Shown: one piece after another, positions 9,790-19,199 of the stretch
Numbering within the stretch: the first letter of the stretch is position 1
How the letters are laid out: every line of letters begins with the position of its first letter
Assembly (NCBI GenBank): GCA_037141255.1
Contig: JBAXCX010000001.1
Coordinates: 67-64,066, forward strand
Reading direction: 5' to 3'
DNA from: Actinomycetes bacterium
Lineage (GTDB): Bacteria; Actinomycetota; Acidimicrobiia; Acidimicrobiales; Microtrichaceae
DNA: 64,000 nt
Notes under the pieces: generated by a model
Databases searched by the model: none
The model's input: only the letters and a program-made list of their open reading frames with translations
Told to the model about the DNA's origin: nothing
Translations under genes and position numbers: made by a program

Positions 9790-11778
9790 TCAGCGGATTG
9801 CGGCGACGCGATCGGCTGAAGAAATCGCAGCTCCCACTCGCTCGCCCTCGATTACTGCTGAGTGGGCGCGCCGCGGAGCCACTGCGTCCCCGGCTCGATA
9901 CACGTCTATTCCTGCAGCCTTCAGCTCAAAGTACAGGTCATCTACTGGGTCAGCGGGCAGCGCTAGCACAAGCCAATCGGGCTCTCGGCTGAGCGACTCT
10001 CCGGTGGGATGATGCTGAAGCTGAACGGTATGACCCTCAATGCCCATAACACCAGAATTTGTGGTCTGCACAATTCCTTTGGAGCCCGCGCGGATCCACC
10101 AGTTCTCCATATCTAAGGTGATTCCCAAGTCCTGGCCGACCACCATGCCAGGGGTGATCACCTCTACTTTGCAGCCACGGTCAGCAAGTAGTTCGGCAAC
10201 AGAGGTGGCGTGATGAAAACCAATCTCATCGATCACGACAACGTCGCCCTCGGGGTGAACCCTGCCGGACAGAACGTCACGCACATCCACGATCCAGCCA
10301 ACTCCGCCAGCTAGATCCTCGGGCATCCAGTACGGAGTGGATGGCTGAGCGCCAGTGGCAATGATCACGGTTGACACACCGCGTCGCTCCACCTCCGCGG
10401 CAGTTACCGTCAGCTCGTACTCGAACTCAACACCGAGCCGACCGCACTCGTGGAGTTGGTTGCGCACCAGATCACCGAACTCCGCACGGTTGGGCACCGA
10501 GGCCGCCAAACGAACTTGTCCACCAGCGGCAGATTCTCGCTCGCAAACCGTCACATGGTGGCCGTTGCGCGCTGCAGCAATTGCCGCTTGCATTCCCGCT
10601 GGGCCGGCTCCCACAACAAGCACTTTGCGTCCAACACTCACCGTCTGAGCCAGACCCACACCCTGAGACTCGCGGCCGGTGCGCGGATTCTCGATGCATC
10701 CCAACCACCGGTTGAGCCCCATACGCCCCACGCACTCTTGATTGCAAGACAAACACAAGCGGGTGTCATCGGTGAAACCCGCCTTTGCCTTCCGAACAAA
10801 ATCCGGGTCGGCAATCTGCCCTCGGACGACCCCAACAAGATCACAGAACCCTTCGCTCAGGGCTCGCTCTGCTTGAAGGGGATCTTTGAATCGACCCACA
10901 CCCACCACTGGCAACTCAACCGCAGCGCGCAATGCCGCCGGAATGAACATGGCATAGCCAGGCGGGATATGCATAGACGCTTCGATCATGAACAGCGAGG
11001 CGGTGGCCACACCGATTGAGGTATTGATGTAATCGACCTGCCCGGTGGCTTCCACCATCTTCGCCACTTCAACGGCTTCGTCAATAGTGGTTCCACCCTC
11101 GATGAGTTCATCGCCGCAGAGGCGAACTCCGAGAGCCAATTCGGAGCCGATTTCGGCGCGAACTGCTGCAATAATCTCGATCAAGATGCGGGCGCGGTTC
11201 TCGAGCGAACCTCCGTAATCGTCGGTGCGCAGGTTTGTAGCGGGTGACAAGAACCCGCGCACGATCGAGGAGTGAGAGCACTGCAATTCCACTCCATCGA
11301 ATCCACCCTCCACGCAATGCCCGGCGACTAATGCGTACGAGGCAACGATCTGAGCTATCTCTGCTGAGTCAACGGCTTTGGGGACTTCTCGGAAGAGCGG
11401 ATCGGCAACGGCAGAAGGAGCCCAAACCGGCAGCCGCGAATACATCGAGGAGGCTTGACCGCCGTTGTGATTGATCTGCGCAAAAATCGGCACACGATAC
11501 CGGTGCACAGCATCAGTTATTCGGCGATACCCAGGAATCACCTCGCGATGAAACCCGTGAATCAGTTTCTCGTAGGGCCAATCGGTGGGATGGGTTGAAT
11601 GCTCTTCGGTGATGATGAGCCCCGCACCACCCTTAGCTCGCTCGGCGTAGTACGCGGCGTGTTGCTCCGTTGGAAGCCCGCCTTCGGCGTAGTTCGTGAG
11701 ATGTGCAGAAAAAACAATGCGATTACGCACGGTGACCGGACCCAATTGCAGCGGGGTCCAGATAATCTGCTCAGTCAT
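9790..11778 (-). CDS. Mycofactocin system FadH/OYE family oxidoreductase 2 (FMN, [4Fe-4S], FAD/nucleotide domain)
   Basis: NRIVFSAHLTNYA, TEEHSTHPTDWPYEK, intact CLSCNQEC-x11-C, VVGAGPAG. Confidence 0.9.
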   Translation of the reverse strand: MTEQIIWTPLQLGPVTVRNRIVFSAHLTNYAEGGLPTEQHAAYYAERAKGGAGLIITEEHSTHPTDWPYEKLIHGFHREVIPGYRRITDAVHRYRVPIFAQINHNGGQASSMYSRLPVWAPSAVADPLFREVPKAVDSAEIAQIVASYALVAGHCVEGGFDGVELQCSHSSIVRGFLSPATNLRTDDYGGSLENRARILIEIIAAVRAEIGSELALGVRLCGDELIEGGTTIDEAVEVAKMVEATGQVDYINTSIGVATASLFMIEASMHIPPGYAMFIPAALRAAVELPVVGVGRFKDPLQAERALSEGFCDLVGVVRGQIADPDFVRKAKAGFTDDTRLCLSCNQECVGRMGLNRWLGCIENPRTGRESQGVGLAQTVSVGRKVLVVGAGPAGMQAAIAAARNGHHVTVCERESAAGGQVRLAASVPNRAEFGDLVRNQLHECGRLGVEFEYELTVTAAEVERRGVSTVIIATGAQPSTPYWMPEDLAGGVGWIVDVRDVLSGRVHPEGDVVVIDEIGFHHATSVAELLADRGCKVEVITPGMVVGQDLGITLDMENWWIRAGSKGIVQTTNSGVMGIEGHTVQLQHHPTGESLSREPDWLVLALPADPVDDLYFELKAAGIDVYRAGDAVAPRRAHSAVIEGERVGAAISSADRVAAIR

Positions 11779-11814
11779 GGTTCTAACTTAGATCGGGAGC
11801 AGGCTCCGACCGAA

Positions 11815-12192
11815 TCAGTGAGACTCGGAGGAGCGACGACGTCCAATCAGAATCGAAGTCAGTCCTGCAACTGAAGACACCGCTGCTGCTGTTCCGCCAG
11901 CGACTGCAGCCACTCGCCCCCACAGAACCCGACCTTTTGATCCGTCAAGAAGCCCCGTCACCTTCCGATGCGAATCCACGAGCACTTCGCCAATTGGCTC
12001 CAAGCCAAAACCGATGAACTTGCCGTTGCGTACATGTCCGAACATGCCACCGGGCAAAGCAACAGCTACGTCGTCATGGCTTCGGAACATCCCGTTCGCG
12101 GACTTAGCTAATTCCACCGCGTTCTGGATCGTTCGTTCAAGTCCCGAACTCGTTGTTGAGATGGTCTCGCTGAGTACCGATGCTGCTGCCAT
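11815..12192 (-). CDS. Hypothetical protein with C-terminal hydrophobic tail
   Basis: Strong RBS (AGGAGG) 7 nt before ATG; fills the gap between the two OYE genes; Ala/Val/Gly tail followed by RRR. Confidence 0.7.
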   Translation of the reverse strand: MAAASVLSETISTTSSGLERTIQNAVELAKSANGMFRSHDDVAVALPGGMFGHVRNGKFIGFGLEPIGEVLVDSHRKVTGLLDGSKGRVLWGRVAAVAGGTAAAVSSVAGLTSILIGRRRSSESH

Positions 12193-12267
12193 TATGTTTC
12201 CTCCTGAGCGACTTCAAAATCCCGACTTTGCCCGTCTCGGGTTCTTATGCACAAGACCCGCCTAGTG

Positions 12268-12295
12268 AGGGTAGCGGCACAACGCCACAAGTCAA
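12268..12295 (-). promoter_or_regulatory. Sigma-70/SigA-type promoter for the 125-aa gene
   Basis: Minus strand TTGACT-16 nt-TACCCT. Confidence 0.55.
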
Positions 12296-12318
12296 CAGGT
12301 GAATGTCTAGCGATTCGC

Positions 12319-14319
12319 TCAGCCCAAGGCAATCGCTGCTCGTCGGCCCTCGAGAACAGCTTCGTAAATCGACCGTGGAGCAACGCAATCCCCCACACTG
12401 TTGGCCTGTACGAGCGAGGAATGAGCGAGTTCTAAGCCGAGGGCATCATTTGGCAGGCGGTGACCCGCGTCAATCAAGCCAGCAACAGGGATCGTCTCCA
12501 TTTTCGCAGAGAAGCGATCCTCAAACGTGGCCAGTTCAGCAGAGATCGAACGAAGCAGCACCCGCAGATGCAGCTGAACTCCGGACTGCAATAAACGAGC
12601 GTTCGCAGGCGCAAGATCGCCGGAACGAGCAAGTTCATTACCCGCGATGTTGTCTTGTGTAGCAAGGTGCACTTCCGTCCCGCGAGCAGCGAGCAGTTCC
12701 GCAACTGCCACTCCGATGGGTCCGCCGATCGGATCCCAGATCACAATTGGCCCATCGGGCAGGGCTTCAGGGTGATTGAGTGCCTCGACTGCCGTGCGGA
12801 CCACCGACCCGGGTTGTTGGTCGTAGCTGCGCAATCCATCTCGCCCGCCAACCGCGACAATGACATGACCATTCAGTTCATCGGCGGCGACAGAATGGTT
12901 GTTGATGAGTTCAACTCCACTGAGTCGGCACTCGGCCTCAAGCCAATCGACCAACAAAGCCAGGCGCTGCCAGCCCGGACCCTTTGAAGCTGTCCGCACC
13001 ATTCCGCCAAAGTTTTCAGCGGCTTCAAACAACCGCACCCGGTGTCCGCGAACTGCTGCGACTCGGGCTGCTTCAAGGCCACCGGGACCACCACCTACGA
13101 CGGTAAGTTCAACTTGGTGCGCAGCCGCAGCCTCGGGGAGCGCATCCTTTGTTTCGTAGCCAGAGAATGGATCTCCCAAGGCCGTCACGATGGGATTGCG
13201 ATTGTCACGGACCTGACTACGTTGATTCGACAAGGTACAGGGTCGAATTCGCGATGGCTGACCTGCTCGCAACTTGGCCACGAGGTCGGCGTCGGAGATT
13301 TGAGCGCGAGTCATCTCGACTGCGTCAGCAACTCCATCTGTCAGCGCCCATTCAGCCTGATCCACATCCACAATCGATCCCTGGGCTGCGACCGCTACGC
13401 GATCCTGAGTGGCTGCGCGCACTTGTTCGCGAACTGCTCGGGTGAGTTCCAGGTTGAACCCAGGAGGCGTATGGCCTCCGGGTCGAGTTGCCGACACCGA
13501 GTAGATCGATCCTCTCACCACGGTGAGCAGATCGATCGGCCCGAGTTGCGGTTCGCAGGCAATCTCTGCAGCTAACCCGGGAGCTTGCTCTGGGGTGATA
13601 CCAGCCCAAGGGGCGAGCTCGTCACAGGACAACCGCAGCGCAAGCAGTTTCTCGTTTCCAATCGAGGAGCGAACCACTGTCAGGAGATCGCGCAGAAAGA
13701 GTCGTCGATCGCCACCCCACTCGTCTGATCGCTGATTTGTCAGCCCGGACAGGAACTGCCGCACCAGCGAGTACTGACCTGCGTTGATCTCAACACCATC
13801 GCAGCCCGATTGCACTGCCAGTTTTGCGGCCTCAGCGAAGCCAGCGATTACTTCGGAGATGTCCTCGAGCTCCATCCACTTGGGAACCTCGCGAGAGTTG
13901 ACCTCGGGAACTCGTGACGGTGCCCAGAGCTCACGCTGGCTCCAATGAGAAGTTCCTTGGCCACCGGCATGGCCGAGTGCAGCGAGCACCAGCGAACCCT
14001 CCGAGGCGCAGGCCTCAACAACGCCGGCCCAGCCCTGTGCACACTGCGCGGCGAGCGGTGCTCGCTCATAAGGCCAATCCGACTCGTGCACCGAGGCCTC
14101 TTCAGTAATGATGACTCCGGCCCCGCCGACAGCTCGACGTTGGTAGTACGCAATATGGGCAGCAGAGATGGAACGTCCCGTTCCCAGATTGGTCTCGTGT
14201 GGGCCAAAAATGATTCGAGTCGGTGCCTGGACGGGGCCGAAGTCGAGTGGTTCAAGAAGTTTCACTCCCCCACTTTGGCTCAGCTGCGCGGACTCTCCCA
14301 AGCCCTCCGAAGTGATCAC
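12319..14319 (-). CDS. Mycofactocin system FadH/OYE family oxidoreductase 1
   Basis: FGPHETNLG, TEEASVHESDWPYERAP, EINAGQYSLVRQFLSGLTN, VRDNRNPIV, VVGGGPGG. The start may be GTG ~14265. Confidence 0.88.
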   Translation of the reverse strand: MITSEGLGESAQLSQSGGVKLLEPLDFGPVQAPTRIIFGPHETNLGTGRSISAAHIAYYQRRAVGGAGVIITEEASVHESDWPYERAPLAAQCAQGWAGVVEACASEGSLVLAALGHAGGQGTSHWSQRELWAPSRVPEVNSREVPKWMELEDISEVIAGFAEAAKLAVQSGCDGVEINAGQYSLVRQFLSGLTNQRSDEWGGDRRLFLRDLLTVVRSSIGNEKLLALRLSCDELAPWAGITPEQAPGLAAEIACEPQLGPIDLLTVVRGSIYSVSATRPGGHTPPGFNLELTRAVREQVRAATQDRVAVAAQGSIVDVDQAEWALTDGVADAVEMTRAQISDADLVAKLRAGQPSRIRPCTLSNQRSQVRDNRNPIVTALGDPFSGYETKDALPEAAAAHQVELTVVGGGPGGLEAARVAAVRGHRVRLFEAAENFGGMVRTASKGPGWQRLALLVDWLEAECRLSGVELINNHSVAADELNGHVIVAVGGRDGLRSYDQQPGSVVRTAVEALNHPEALPDGPIVIWDPIGGPIGVAVAELLAARGTEVHLATQDNIAGNELARSGDLAPANARLLQSGVQLHLRVLLRSISAELATFEDRFSAKMETIPVAGLIDAGHRLPNDALGLELAHSSLVQANSVGDCVAPRSIYEAVLEGRRAAIALG

Positions 14320-14324
14320 ATGTA

Positions 14325-15521
14325 TCAGGCGCGCTGTCGGCGCGTTGGTCGCAGCGTCACAGGAGAAGGCACGGGAACTCCGGGACGAGAGTGGTCTGCG
14401 CTTGAACTCGGCGCAGCGGCCCCGCTCGTTGCCAGTGCAGCTAGATACGGCTCCGCGTTACCAAGCACGCACTCGGGGTCTGGATCGGTGAGTTCCAGAC
14501 CAACAAAAAACTTTGAGGCCATGCAACCACCCTGGCAGGCGTCATAGCTGCCGCAGCTCGTGCAGGCACCCTCACTCTCGGGCTCGCGCAATGACAAGAA
14601 CAAGTCCGACTCACGCCACACCCTCGTGAAGCCACCTTCGTTGCGAATATTTCCTGCAAGAAACTCCTCGTGAATCACGAACGGGCAGGCGTAGACGTCG
14701 CCAACTGGATCGATGAGACAGACCACCCGGCCAGCGCCGCAAAGGTTCAACCCGGGCAGAGCGTCGCCAAGAGCCGAGAGGTGAAAGAAGGAGTCGCCTG
14801 TGAGTACCGTGGGTCGGTCCATGAGCCAGTAATACAGCTCTCGTTGTTGGGCCTGAGTTGGGTGAAGCGCTGCCCAAGAATCGACGCCGCGTCCTGATGG
14901 ACGGAGTCGGGTGACACGAAGTTGCGCTCCGTAGGCGTCGGCAATCGCTTTGAACTCATCGAGCTGGCTGACGTTATGGCGAGTCACCACCAGACTGATT
15001 TTGAACGGGCCGAACTCGGCTGCGGCAAGGTGATCCATGGCCGCACGAGCTGCTGCGAATGACCCCTCCCCTCGAACAAGATCGTTCACCTGAGCGTCTG
15101 CACCATCGATCGAAATCTGAATATCGAGATAATCCATTGCTGCGAGGCGCTCCGCGGCAGCAGCATCGATAAACGTTCCGTTCGTAGAGAACTTCACGCC
15201 CACCTTGTGCGCAGCGGCATACTCCAGAATCTCGAAGAAGTCGGCGCGCAGCATGGGCTCGCCGCCCCCGATGTTGACGTAAAACACTTGGAGGCGCTCA
15301 AGCTCATCGATGACCGCAAAGCACTCCTCGGTGGTCAGCTCCCGAGGGTCTCGACGACCGGAGGAAGACAAACAATGCACGCATGACAAGTTGCACGCGT
15401 AGGTCAACTCCCAGGTCAAACAGATTGGGGCATCCAGACCAAACTTGAACTCCTCGACGAGTGGCCGCGTTGCTGCTGGGGGTTGTGCGGGAACCTTGTC
15501 TCGTTGCTGCTCAAGCTGCAC
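14325..15521 (-). CDS. mftC: Mycofactocin radical SAM maturase MftC
   Basis: GLDAPICLTWELTYACNLSCVHC (CxxxCxxC), GGGEP, SPASM cysteines LCGAGRVVC...ACPF...CTSC...C...GGC...DPEC. Confidence 0.96.
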   Translation of the reverse strand: MQLEQQRDKVPAQPPAATRPLVEEFKFGLDAPICLTWELTYACNLSCVHCLSSSGRRDPRELTTEECFAVIDELERLQVFYVNIGGGEPMLRADFFEILEYAAAHKVGVKFSTNGTFIDAAAAERLAAMDYLDIQISIDGADAQVNDLVRGEGSFAAARAAMDHLAAAEFGPFKISLVVTRHNVSQLDEFKAIADAYGAQLRVTRLRPSGRGVDSWAALHPTQAQQRELYYWLMDRPTVLTGDSFFHLSALGDALPGLNLCGAGRVVCLIDPVGDVYACPFVIHEEFLAGNIRNEGGFTRVWRESDLFLSLREPESEGACTSCGSYDACQGGCMASKFFVGLELTDPDPECVLGNAEPYLAALATSGAAAPSSSADHSRPGVPVPSPVTLRPTRRQRA

Positions 15522-15774
15522 GAATCATCTCCGAAGTTTCAAGTGTGGCTAACGCGATCAAAAAGCTGGGCCACTTGTCCTTCTCGACCCCAACAGCTTC
15601 AAAGACTTGTCGAACGGAATTGTAAGAATCTAACGACTCAACGACGCGCAGCAGATCGGGGTGCTTCAGAAAGGAAAGCTTGCGGGTGTCAAAGCTGTAG
15701 GCCAGGGCCCCAAATCGTTCCGGCCGAAGCGACACATTTGGGCTGAGCTGGTAGCTCGCCTCAAGGTCAATCAC
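15511..15774 (-). CDS. mftB: Mycofactocin chaperone MftB (RRE/PqqD-like)
   Basis: VSLRPERFGALAYSFDTRKLSFLK. GTG 15774 lies 9 nt after a GAGGG RBS; alternative TTG 15783. Confidence 0.93.
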   Translation of the reverse strand: MIDLEASYQLSPNVSLRPERFGALAYSFDTRKLSFLKHPDLLRVVESLDSYNSVRQVFEAVGVEKDKWPSFLIALATLETSEMIRAA

Positions 15775-15786
15775 AAGAACCAACCC

Positions 15787-16139: not shown

Positions 16140-17273
16140 ATGCCAACCACGACTCGCGCTGCAGTGCTCTGGGAGACCGGAGCTGACTGGAAGATCGAGG
16201 AAGTTCGACTCGATGATCCCAAGGCAAATGATGTGCTCGTCACCATGAAGGCTGCCGGAATGTGTCACTCGGACGACCATGTGGTTACTGGTGACCTCCC
16301 TCTGCCCCTCCCCGTGATCGGCGGACACGAGGGCGCCGGCATCGTCGAAGCAGTCGGACCGGGTGTCACTACCTTGGCTCCAGGAGATCACGTCTCGGTG
16401 TCATTCATCCCCAGCTGCGGTCGATGCAAGTGGTGTTCCACGGGGCGGCAGTACCTCTGCGACGAGGGAGCCAAACTGTTCGACATCGGCATGATGAGCG
16501 ATGGCCGCGAAGCTCACTTTGTGAATAACGCTCAGGGGGACTCTCAAGCAGTGGGAAGATTTGCGCAGGTTGGCACCTTTTCTGAACAAATTCTGGTGAG
16601 CGAGAACTCACTCGTGAAGGTGGAAAAGGACCTGCCCTTCGGCGTGATTGCGTTGGTCTCATGCGGAGTTGCAACAGGGTTTGGATCAGCTACTGAACGT
16701 GCGGGCACCAAACCCGGGGACAACGTTGCAGTAGTGGGAGTGGGAGGCATTGGCATCAACGCGGTCCAAGGGGCTCGCATTGCAGGCGCAAAGCGTGTCA
16801 TCGCGATCGATCCCATTGAGTTCAAGCGAGAGCAAGCCATGGAATTCGGTGCCACGCACACCTTCTCCTCGATCGAGGAGGCCATGCTCGCCATCCCCGA
16901 TCTCACTTGGGGCGAGATGTGTGAGCGAGTCATCCTGTGCCCTGGCGTGATGCACGGAGACATGATTGAACCGGCGCTCGGTCTTACCTCGAAGGGTGGC
17001 ACCCTCGTCATAACGGGGCTTGCCCCGATGCTGGAAAATGATGCTCAGCTGAACGTGTTCATGTTGTCGATGATGAACAAGGAGATCAAGGGAACGGTGT
17101 TTGGTTCTTCTAATCCGCGAGCGATGATTCCCCAACTGCTCTCGATGTACCGAGAAGGTGGACTCAAGCTCGATGAGCTCATCACCACTCGCTATAGCCT
17201 TGATCAGGTGAATCAGGGCTACGCCGATATGGCCAGCGGACGCAACATTCGCGGCGTCATCGACTTCGCCTGA
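16140..17273 (+). CDS. NDMA-dependent (nicotinoprotein) Zn-alcohol dehydrogenase, mycofactocin-associated type
   Basis: GMCHSDDHVVTGD, GGHEGAG, SFIPSCGRCKWC...LCD, LVSCGVATGFGSA, GVGGIG, IDPIEFKRE; divergent from mftA. Confidence 0.85.
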   Translation: MPTTTRAAVLWETGADWKIEEVRLDDPKANDVLVTMKAAGMCHSDDHVVTGDLPLPLPVIGGHEGAGIVEAVGPGVTTLAPGDHVSVSFIPSCGRCKWCSTGRQYLCDEGAKLFDIGMMSDGREAHFVNNAQGDSQAVGRFAQVGTFSEQILVSENSLVKVEKDLPFGVIALVSCGVATGFGSATERAGTKPGDNVAVVGVGGIGINAVQGARIAGAKRVIAIDPIEFKREQAMEFGATHTFSSIEEAMLAIPDLTWGEMCERVILCPGVMHGDMIEPALGLTSKGGTLVITGLAPMLENDAQLNVFMLSMMNKEIKGTVFGSSNPRAMIPQLLSMYREGGLKLDELITTRYSLDQVNQGYADMASGRNIRGVIDFA

Positions 17274-17295: not shown

Positions 17296-18240
17296 ATGCA
17301 AAAAACCTCTGGGCCCGAACTTTTAGACCTGTTGACGACTTCCGTCGTGGGGAGGCGCCGCGAGCTTGAATCAGTGGTGGCGGCGCTCTCTGCCGGACGG
17401 CACCTGCTACTCGAAGGGCCTCCAGGAACGGGCAAGTCAACGGTATTACGAGCAGTCGCCGAGGGGACCGGATCTGGATTTGAGTTTGTGGAAGGCAACG
17501 CTGAGCTGACCCCAGCGCGACTCGTGGGCAGCTTCGACCCATCGATCGTGCTCGCCGAGGGATACGTAGCAGCGGCGTTTGTAGATGGCCCTTTGCTGTG
17601 CGCGCTACGCGAGGGTTCGCTTCTGTATATCGAGGAAATCAACCGTATTCCGGAAGAAACTCTCAACCTGCTCATCACCGTGATGAGCGAAGCCGAACTA
17701 CACGTGCCGAGGCTTGGACGGGTTGAAGCGCACCCCAGCTTTCGACTTGTCGCCGCAATGAACCCGTTCGATTCGGTGGGGACTGCTCGCATCGCATCTG
17801 CGGTATACGACCGCTGCTGCCGACTCGCCATGCGGTATCAGAATGCCGAAGACGAGATAGAGATTGTTCGAGCGGTCGCATCGGCGGCCGCAGCGTACGT
17901 TGGTGTAGAGGTAGTGAAGTCTGCAGTCGCGATGGTGCGCGACAGCCGAACCCATAGCGAGATCCGCACGGGATCATCGGTGCGCGGGGCAATAGATTTT
18001 GTGATGGTGCTCAAAGAACTCGCAGAATTACGAGGCACCGCCACGCTGGAACCGTCGGTCACGCTCGATGCAGCCATGCTTGCACTCTCTGGGCGTATTC
18101 GAATCACGGAGGGCGGATCTCGAACGGCCGAAGAATTGGTAACGGAACTCTGGGAACGACAATTCGGCATCAGGGCTGCCGAGCAGCAGAGCAACCCTGA
18201 TGCCGCCTCTCAGCAGGGCGCTGCTCAGAAAAAAGCCTGA
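17296..18240 (+). CDS. MoxR-family AAA+ ATPase (MadB-like)
   Basis: Walker A GPPGTGKS, Walker B variant LLYIEEINR, FRLVAAMNPFD, GSSVRGAID. Confidence 0.9.
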   Translation: MQKTSGPELLDLLTTSVVGRRRELESVVAALSAGRHLLLEGPPGTGKSTVLRAVAEGTGSGFEFVEGNAELTPARLVGSFDPSIVLAEGYVAAAFVDGPLLCALREGSLLYIEEINRIPEETLNLLITVMSEAELHVPRLGRVEAHPSFRLVAAMNPFDSVGTARIASAVYDRCCRLAMRYQNAEDEIEIVRAVASAAAAYVGVEVVKSAVAMVRDSRTHSEIRTGSSVRGAIDFVMVLKELAELRGTATLEPSVTLDAAMLALSGRIRITEGGSRTAEELVTELWERQFGIRAAEQQSNPDAASQQGAAQKKA

Positions 18241-18258
18241 CCCCGCCACCTGGCGGGG
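18228..18258 (+). other. Putative programmed -1 ribosomal frameshift signal
   Basis: G_AAA_AAA (18228-18234), 6-nt spacer containing the stop, then hairpin CCCCGCC-acct-GGCGGGG (18241-18258). The -1 frame is the vWA frame. Confidence 0.7.
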
Positions 18259-19199
18259 GCCGCCCCCAGACTGACGATATAAAAGAAGGTGAAGCGGCGC
18301 GATCTGCTGTCAGTGAAGCTGGCAGACGAACCACCTCTCGGCGTGACCTTGCACGGCATCCGCAGTTTGAAAAGATCTCTCCGCAGGTTGGACAGCTTGA
18401 CTCCGGGGCGTTTGCGGAGTTGCTCGATCAAGAGCCGGATCAGGCGCTCGCGCTCCTTGCGGAGCTCAATGGGGCAACCGATGAGCAACTCCGAAGAACT
18501 GCCCAGCAACTCGCCGGACGGGTAGTCGTGGACCTTGCCCGCACGGGTACAACACCAACGAGCGGAGTGGGTCGCCTTGTTTCAACCACAGCAGCCAAGC
18601 AGGCGGGCGACCTTGATCTTGATGCCTCACTCGAACCAATTCTTCTCGGCCGAGCAACGAACCTGCCCGTTGCGGCCGAGGACCTTTCGGTTCAAGCTTG
18701 GCAGCGCTCAGACACTGCCATGTGTTTGCTTGTCGACCGATCCGGTTCGATGTTTGGTGAACGCTTGGCCGCAGCCGCTGTTGCTGCAGCAGCAGTGGTC
18801 TACCGCTCTGGGGCTGACTGCTCGGTCATTGCCTTCGCCGAGGATGCAATTGTCATTAAGGCGCAGCATGAGCAGCGTTCCGCAGAGCAGGTCGTGAGCG
18901 ATTTACTTCGGTTGCGAGGTTTCGGGGTCACCAATCTTGCGCTTGCACTGCGCGTAGCGGCTCATCAACTTGCCCGATCAACCGCCAAAAGACAGATCAC
19001 ACTTGTGTTGTCGGATTGTCGAGCCACGACCGGAGGCGACCCTGTTGCTGACGCCGCAGCGTTATCGGAAATGGTCATTCTGGCTCCAGTGGACGACACC
19101 AAAGATGCGCGCACGCTGGCGGATTATCTGGGAATCAAATGCGCGCCGCTCGCAGGACCCACCACGGTGCCAACGGCACTCGCTGCAGTGTTGCAGTAA
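18228..19199 (+). CDS. vWA-domain protein (MadC-like), probably the frameshifted C-terminal part of an AAA+-vWA fusion
   Basis: MIDAS DRSGS...T...LSD. The frame is open from 18201, but the first ATG/GTG/TTG is at 18420. The upstream in-frame text (RRTTSRRDLARHPQFEKISPQVGQLD) looks coding. Confidence 0.8.
   Translation, partial: EKSLTPPPGGGRPQTDDIKEGEAARSAVSEAGRRTTSRRDLARHPQFEKISPQVGQLDSGAFAELLDQEPDQALALLAELNGATDEQLRRTAQQLAGRVVVDLARTGTTPTSGVGRLVSTTAAKQAGDLDLDASLEPILLGRATNLPVAAEDLSVQAWQRSDTAMCLLVDRSGSMFGERLAAAAVAAAAVVYRSGADCSVIAFAEDAIVIKAQHEQRSAEQVVSDLLRLRGFGVTNLALALRVAAHQLARSTAKRQITLVLSDCRATTGGDPVADAAALSEMVILAPVDDTKDARTLADYLGIKCAPLAGPTTVPTALAAVLQ

Follow-up and report, generated by a model that had tools for sequence, protein, structure and literature searches.

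Locus and reading frames

We have analysed a stretch of 64,000 nucleotides (nt) from an actinobacterial assembly of the family Microtrichaceae ("the window"), in which two overlapping open reading frames (ORFs) encode a MoxR-class AAA+ ATPase and a vWA-domain protein, respectively. The junction between them carries a conserved recoding site, which is real, and the two ORFs very probably constitute one gene, from which programmed -1 ribosomal frameshifting (PRF) would yield an AAA+ protein of 314 amino acids (aa) and an AAA+-vWA fusion of 634 aa. In the following, "split" denotes loci with the two halves in different frames, and "fused" denotes loci with both halves in one frame. The relevant features are:

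17296..18240 (+): MoxR-class AAA+ ATPase ORF (PF07728 AAA_5, E=1e-26); ordinary decoding gives the short product of 314 aa
17416..17439 (+): Walker A motif GPPGTGKS, invariant or nearly so in alignment A1
18215..18218 (+): weak Shine-Dalgarno (SD)-like AGGG, 9 nt before the heptamer (-3.9 kcal/mol); possible stimulator
18228..18234 (+): slippery heptamer G_AAA_AAA (in most relatives G_GGA_AAA), from sequence and family comparison
18235..18240 (+): spacer of 6 nt, the modal length in both the split and the fused class, holding the 0-frame stop TGA (18238-18240)
18241..18258 (+): GC hairpin of 7 bp with a 4-nt loop, putative downstream stimulator, at the offset where the folding energy of the family peaks
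18234..19199 (+): -1 frame after the slip, with Pro/Gly linker, helical region and vWA domain (fusion residues 314-634)
18324..18419 (+): conserved protein segment before the first standard start codon, TTG 18420 (R349, L352, S362, P363, G366, D369)
18735..18749 (+): MIDAS motif DxSxS (DRSGS) of the vWA domain; D, S, G and S invariant in alignment A3

The AAA+ ORF ends in CAG AAA AAA GCC TGA. The -1 frame opens at 18201, after TGA 18198-18200, and ends at 19199; from 18201 until TTG 18420 it contains no ATG, GTG or TTG. Its vWA half matches PF13519 VWA_2 (E=7e-8), the segment 18234..19199 aligns end to end with in-frame fused orthologs, and the listed residues upstream of TTG 18420 are 94–99% conserved in the latter. 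A preceding interpretation made from the DNA letters (the sequence-only reading) had proposed frameshifting at this site, and its coordinates for the end of the AAA+ ORF, the heptamer, the spacer, the hairpin, the -1 frame and TTG 18420 all proved correct. The slippery run it described is present; however, it is an imperfect X_XXY_YYZ, in that one G-U re-pair is needed, and deviates from the family norm G_GGA_AAA.

The hairpin has a folding energy of -16.2 kcal/mol, which by itself is unexceptional for its composition (z -1.1), while the 65-nt region reaches z -2.8. As a transcription terminator it was rejected, given that it lacks a U-tail and is not called by prediction. Upon scanning the 2,535 open frames of at least 200 codons in the genome for a stop-proximal in-phase heptamer combined with a long -1 frame and a hairpin folding at -12 kcal/mol or below, the AAA+ ORF was the only one to show all of these. 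The host assembly (269 contigs, 85% complete) contains tRNA-Lys(UUU), and no tRNA-Lys(CUU) was found in it.

Conservation of the split form

The host is a freshwater actinobacterium of Microthrixaceae type. The gene is present in 56 of the 60 genomes sampled from the host's family; in the order, 74 genomes out of 301 carry it. The closest named records (76–82% identity) are Microthrixaceae and "Actinobacteria bacterium IMCC26207". After dropping identical junctions, 152 distinct split junctions were available, including single-contig genomes and spanning, one distant case aside, 55–100% AAA identity. They also include L020 (genome G060), on which none of the conclusions rests. In every one of them (152/152) the vWA frame lies at -1 to the AAA+ frame and an in-phase slippery heptamer is present (135 G_GGA_AAA, 10 G_AAA_AAA, 5 C_CCA_AAA and 2 others), which in 140 junctions is a perfect G_GGA_AAA or C_CCA_AAA. 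The hairpin typically follows after about 6 nt; thus, a slip site with a hairpin is conserved in homologs, one of the checks that the sequence-only reading had proposed.

These data bear directly on the possibility that the true gene has a seventh A, which would place both halves in one frame, the split being due to an assembly error or to decay into a pseudogene. The assembly is indeed incomplete, the break lies at a homopolymer and fused orthologs exist; however, each of the 8 further genomes of the genus has the six-A form and the -1 layout, so that an assembly slip is excluded, and the layout recurs in the 152 distinct junctions. This explanation is, hence, effectively refuted. Separately, in three loci (L095, L239 and L307) the vWA frame is at +1 or an additional indel is present; sequencing errors or decay are the probable cause, and the tree was built without these loci on account of the suspected indel errors. 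A distant homolog of 42% identity (L235, G188:C12:38982-39785) has no dehydrogenase upstream and is split at -1 at a run of nine A's.

Within the family, the constraint is concentrated on the signal. The four A's of the heptamer are invariant in 85/85 junctions, the linker upstream is unconserved, and among 25,217 upstream codons there is not one in-phase G_GGA_AAA, a heptamer built from the disfavoured codons GGA (14.5% usage) and AAA (26% usage). In the five C_CCA_AAA loci, GGG has changed to CCC as a block with the A's unaltered, as tandem slippage predicts. The distance from slip site to hairpin is nearly fixed (mode 6 nt), the hairpin sequence varies between lineages, and the family folding energy peaks at the hairpin offset, about 4.8 kcal/mol below shuffles. 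Base-pair counts at one compensatory hairpin position (G-C 14, A-T 8, G-T 7) are suggestive only, as the loci were pre-selected for the 7-bp/4-nt register (29/53). The upstream AGGG noted in the sequence-only reading is present and weak, but it is not conserved as such, being kept in 8/96 loci; SD-like pairing at that distance is mildly enriched (family mean -5.1 vs -3.7 kcal/mol for codon-shuffled linkers, better than codon shuffles in 68% of loci).

A related possibility is transcriptional slippage, with the RNA polymerase adding one A and the ribosome not being involved. The six A's in the host's genus would be compatible with it, and PRF and slippage are interchangeable in dnaX (PMC3711429). 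Most relatives, however, have just four A's, whereas slippage sites are usually homopolymers of at least 8 or two combined shorter runs (PMC3711429); furthermore, the codon phase of the heptamer, the GGG/CCC block change and the ribosomal spacing of the hairpin make this explanation highly improbable.

It is also very unlikely that two separate proteins are made, with the vWA ORF started by translational coupling either at CTG 18237, which overlaps the stop, or at TTG 18420. MoxR and vWA partners are mostly encoded by two genes, a MadB-like pair of the host itself among them; internal initiation was seen beside frameshifting in some cassettes (Antonov 2013, PMC3711429); and in 151 split loci the stop-overlapping codon is CTG 107 times and GTG 6 times. 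Yet it is CTA, GTA or ATA in the remaining 38, initiation at the CTG would be impeded by the GC hairpin that follows at 4 nt, and a start at TTG 18420 would remove conserved residues. Moreover, the 0-frame stop wanders from 1 to 27 codons past the site while heptamer and hairpin stay fixed, and the occurrence of the same signal in fused genes would go unexplained. The sequence-only reading had named a proper vWA start in homologs as evidence against frameshifting; across the family junctions no conserved start codon was found, the first ATG, GTG or TTG lying anywhere from 2 to 97 codons past the site.

Fused orthologs and the reversed polarity

In-frame AAA+-vWA fusions, the search for which the sequence-only reading had likewise proposed, are common among the orthologs, with lengths of about 600–650 aa. 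Pseudonocardia broussonetiae and some 80 other distinct fused loci, including Pseudonocardia-like organisms and some Acidimicrobiales, keep an in-phase G_GGA_AAA and a hairpin at the same distance within the linker, and a second fused lineage shows the same arrangement with A_AAA_AAA. In these genes the -1 frame closes almost at once, typically in the sequence GGA AAA GCT GAC: 79 of 81 signal-bearing fused orthologs meet a -1 stop within 7 codons, as compared to 5.6% of background positions and to 0/81 in the +1 frame. Judged from this arrangement, signal-bearing fused genes would make the long protein by default and the short one by the slip, i.e., in a reverse polarity like that of E. coli dnaX. 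A signal whose sole output is a truncated ATPase argues that the short form is useful, and the retention of both polarities suggests that the cell needs both proteins.

In trees of the AAA domain, the two polarities are largely separated, although a few fused genes branch from within split ones; three changes between the two slip classes are needed. Several independent origins of the reversed polarity were considered and set aside, given that one clade of fused genes is not rejected by the approximately unbiased (AU) test (p = 0.18); polarity has switched at least once. One genome (L229, G184:C1:1778000-1781300) has an AAA-only gene followed in tandem by an AAA-vWA fused gene, resembling chlI plus chlD, which from its gene content would be a non-recoding route to both subunits.

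Several points weigh against the frameshifting interpretation. Split and fused loci are kin, and their counts are not independent trials; the fused set stems mostly from one Pseudonocardia-seeded search. The G_AAA_AAA of the host's genus needs a G-U re-pair in the P site and, therefore, efficiency may be lower. The fused orthologs L118-L120, L122, L225-L228 and L230 have no detectable signal, and in four genomes with a signal-less fused gene no close AAA-only paralog was found, so that the short form is not universally required. Finally, at L339:3001-4884 a fused gene behind two tandem dehydrogenases keeps G_GGA_AAA and the hairpin, but its -1 stop is 124 codons away and the signal looks vestigial; this locus may record a recent or decaying switch of polarity.

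The signal-less fused genes without a close AAA-only paralog would equally fit a situation in which the frameshift is real and the short AAA+ protein a by-product, with the slip merely limiting the amount of fusion and no mixed ring being formed. We consider this unlikely, since the reversed-polarity genes keep a signal that yields solely the short form, as seen from the near -1 stop, and since in one genome the short form is a separate tandem gene. For PRF yielding an AAA+ and an AAA+-vWA product, the comparative checks proposed in the sequence-only reading all came out in favour.

Apart from these orthologs, there is a paralogous AAA+-vWA clade in which a single in-frame TGA separates the two halves in three genomes (L121, stop at 2374; L300; L304:2250-2252). 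The TGA stands in the conserved context Pro-Gly-stop-Arg with about 320–330 open codons after it, and two of the three loci have an SDR-like dehydrogenase gene upstream. Ribosomes may read through this stop, or a coupled restart may take place; a further phylum search revealed no new members of this TGA-bearing clade.

Identity of the proteins and gene neighbourhood

By sequence and predicted fold, the AAA+-vWA protein is NorQ/CbbQ-like, and neither MadB nor ChlD. The nearest solved relatives of the AAA half by sequence (PDB) are midasin, a Cytophaga MoxR protein, CbbQ and NorQ, and CbbQ/NorQ are among the best single-domain PDB sequence matches to the AAA+ ORF. When a fused ortholog was modelled (mean pLDDT 87, with low confidence in the linker at 285-306), a fold search with the model retrieved NorQ (E 7e-14) and CbbQ (2e-12) as best matches, with a NorD chain also matched and BchI at rank 28. 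The AAA_5 module has Walker A and B, sensor-1 Asn and Arg finger, with the motif residues being invariant in the alignment, and the MIDAS is intact (DxSxS, Thr and Asp conserved). The architecture AAA–linker–vWA, with the frameshift site in the linker, is as in frameshifted chlD (fs-chlD). As an observation on the ATPase motifs, Walker B (window 17620-17650 and homologs) is EE instead of the usual DE in 257/257 family members.

The sequence-only reading had regarded the genes as a MadB/MadC-type pair. This assignment did not hold: the MadB model NF047784 gave 43.5 bits against a cutoff of 475, and a MadB-like gene of the host (316.6 bits) lies on another contig with an ordinary ATG-started partner. 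Membership in ChlD/ChlI was likewise rejected (TIGR02031, 40.6 vs 499.55; TIGR02442, 36 vs 779; TIGR02030, 20.5 vs 467 bits). A large subunit cobN/chlH (PF02514) was not found in the host's 85%-complete assembly; some published fs-chlD genomes are likewise devoid of it.

The surrounding genes point to mycofactocin:

16140..17273 (+): NDMA-dependent Zn alcohol dehydrogenase (Rxyl_3153-type, mycofactocin-associated), 377 aa (TIGR03989, 530 bits, cutoff 440)
14325..15783 (-): mycofactocin biosynthesis genes mftB and mftC, oriented divergently to the dehydrogenase and ATPase genes (TIGR03967, TIGR03962, above cutoff)

Among 235 loci whose flanks are long enough, 191 have a dehydrogenase homolog immediately before the ATPase gene, be it split or fused; these include a Chloroflexota genome and signal-less fused genes. 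MftB/mftC are at most 5 kb away in most related loci. Gene order, thus, indicates that the adjacent dehydrogenase is probably the client of the ATPase complex. Complex prediction for the dehydrogenase and the vWA half gave a score of 0.01, which carries no verdict and was used neither for nor against this assignment. Two further observations concern the mycofactocin neighbourhood: both mycofactocin-system OYE oxidoreductases (TIGR03997 and TIGR03996, above cutoff) come after mftC (window 9790-14319, minus strand), and a mycofactocin cluster of Chloroflexota contains a second fused AAA-vWA gene (L227:1-936, 652 aa) just upstream of a fused mftB-mftC.

Proposed mechanism

According to the frameshifting model, the two apparent ORFs would be one recoded gene. 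Ribosomes would translate the AAA+ domain and, on the two Lys codons, should be slowed by the hairpin that begins 6 nt further on. A fraction would slip back by one base, whereupon both tRNAs would pair anew, the P-site tRNA changing from AAA to GAA and the A-site tRNA from AAA to AAA; in most relatives, the slip would occur at the Gly-Lys codons of G_GGA_AAA. Slipped ribosomes would bypass the stop and complete the AAA+-linker-vWA protein, while non-slipping ones would end after Ala314. Tandem tRNA slippage stimulated by a hairpin, here perhaps aided by the weak SD-like element, is what established frameshift biology leads one to expect.

The AAA+ module would be common to the short and the long product, and the two most likely assemble together into a mixed ring with one or a few vWA adaptors. 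By analogy to NorQ/NorD, CbbQ/CbbO and ChlI/ChlD, this ring may remodel the co-encoded mycofactocin-type dehydrogenase. That the fusion sets the stoichiometry of such a ring, as put forward in the sequence-only reading, is an inference; that it is a minority product is doubtful in view of the reversed-polarity relatives. Published efficiencies are 10–63% for chlD cassettes and about 50% for dnaX (PMC3711429), for which reason a minority fusion cannot be assumed. The tryptic peptide proposed for detecting the junction by mass spectrometry lies wholly in the -1 frame and does not span the junction.

More tentatively, and with somewhat less confidence than doubt, we suggest that a mixed ring of short and long forms may be required by a widespread AAA+/vWA activase of mycofactocin-dependent nicotinoprotein dehydrogenases, with both forms being supplied in several ways: by a -1 slip for the long form, by the same slip for the short form, by tandem duplication and, possibly, by UGA readthrough.

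Significance

To our knowledge, few chromosomal bacterial genes use programmed -1 frameshifting. The present family, comprising hundreds of genomes, would be a large addition to them; it is routinely mis-annotated, either as two genes with a truncated vWA protein or as one gene with the short product missed. A further implication is a helper machine, so far uncharacterised, that serves mycofactocin-dependent dehydrogenases. With the same signal occurring in both polarities, the subunit ratio of MoxR/vWA machines can be tested directly, and the named species Pseudonocardia broussonetiae (7.2-Mb contig) is a possible laboratory model. Should the mixed-ring activase exist, the two polarities would amount to a natural experiment in the setting of the AAA:vWA ratio.

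A literature search for MoxR/vWA frameshifts, MadB/MadC or nicotinoproteins together with MoxR returned nothing relevant by title or abstract (Antonov 2020, MBE, was not covered). While no paper on the present family was found, the recoding of chlD and the two polarities of dnaX are already published.

Comparison with known systems

GGGAAAA, the heptamer prevailing here, is a reported -1 frameshift site of mycobacteriophage TM4 (PMC4626039). Its tail assembly chaperone genes share the heptamer and the translation machinery of the same phylum, and the shift sets the ratio of short to extended chaperone; however, these are phage genes encoding unrelated proteins, whereas the gene described here is chromosomal.

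NorQ/NorD and CbbQ/CbbO resemble the present system as the best structural matches to the AAA half, by the intact MIDAS and by the location beside a probable client enzyme. In these systems, however, the partners are separate genes, the adaptor lacks an AAA module, and Walker B is usually DE.

MadB/MadC are similar in being an AAA+/vWA pair beside a nicotinoprotein-type dehydrogenase in Actinobacteria, but the present ATPase stays far below the cutoff of the MadB model, and the host's closer MadB-like gene is encoded elsewhere.

The closest parallel in gene expression is chlD, where AAA-only and AAA-vWA subunits arise from one gene via a -1 frameshift (PMC3711429, PMC9227772, PMC5009743). Common to both are the A-rich site with a downstream stem-loop, the annotation as two ORFs of about 1 kb and the existence of fused homologs. 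The AAA+ family is a different one, though, and cobN/chlH was not found in the incomplete host genome; the site is mostly G_GGA_AAA as opposed to A_AAA_AAR in chlD, the neighbour is a mycofactocin-type dehydrogenase, and both polarities occur with one signal.

The occurrence of both polarities is shared with dnaX (tau/gamma), in which long and short forms of an AAA+ subunit come from one gene and both polarities have been published within one family, including a two-ORF reversed type (PMC3711429). DnaX is part of a clamp loader with an unrelated C-terminal domain, and its reversed type has a long poly-A tract, probably acting through polymerase slippage, whereas here one heptamer and one hairpin would serve both polarities.
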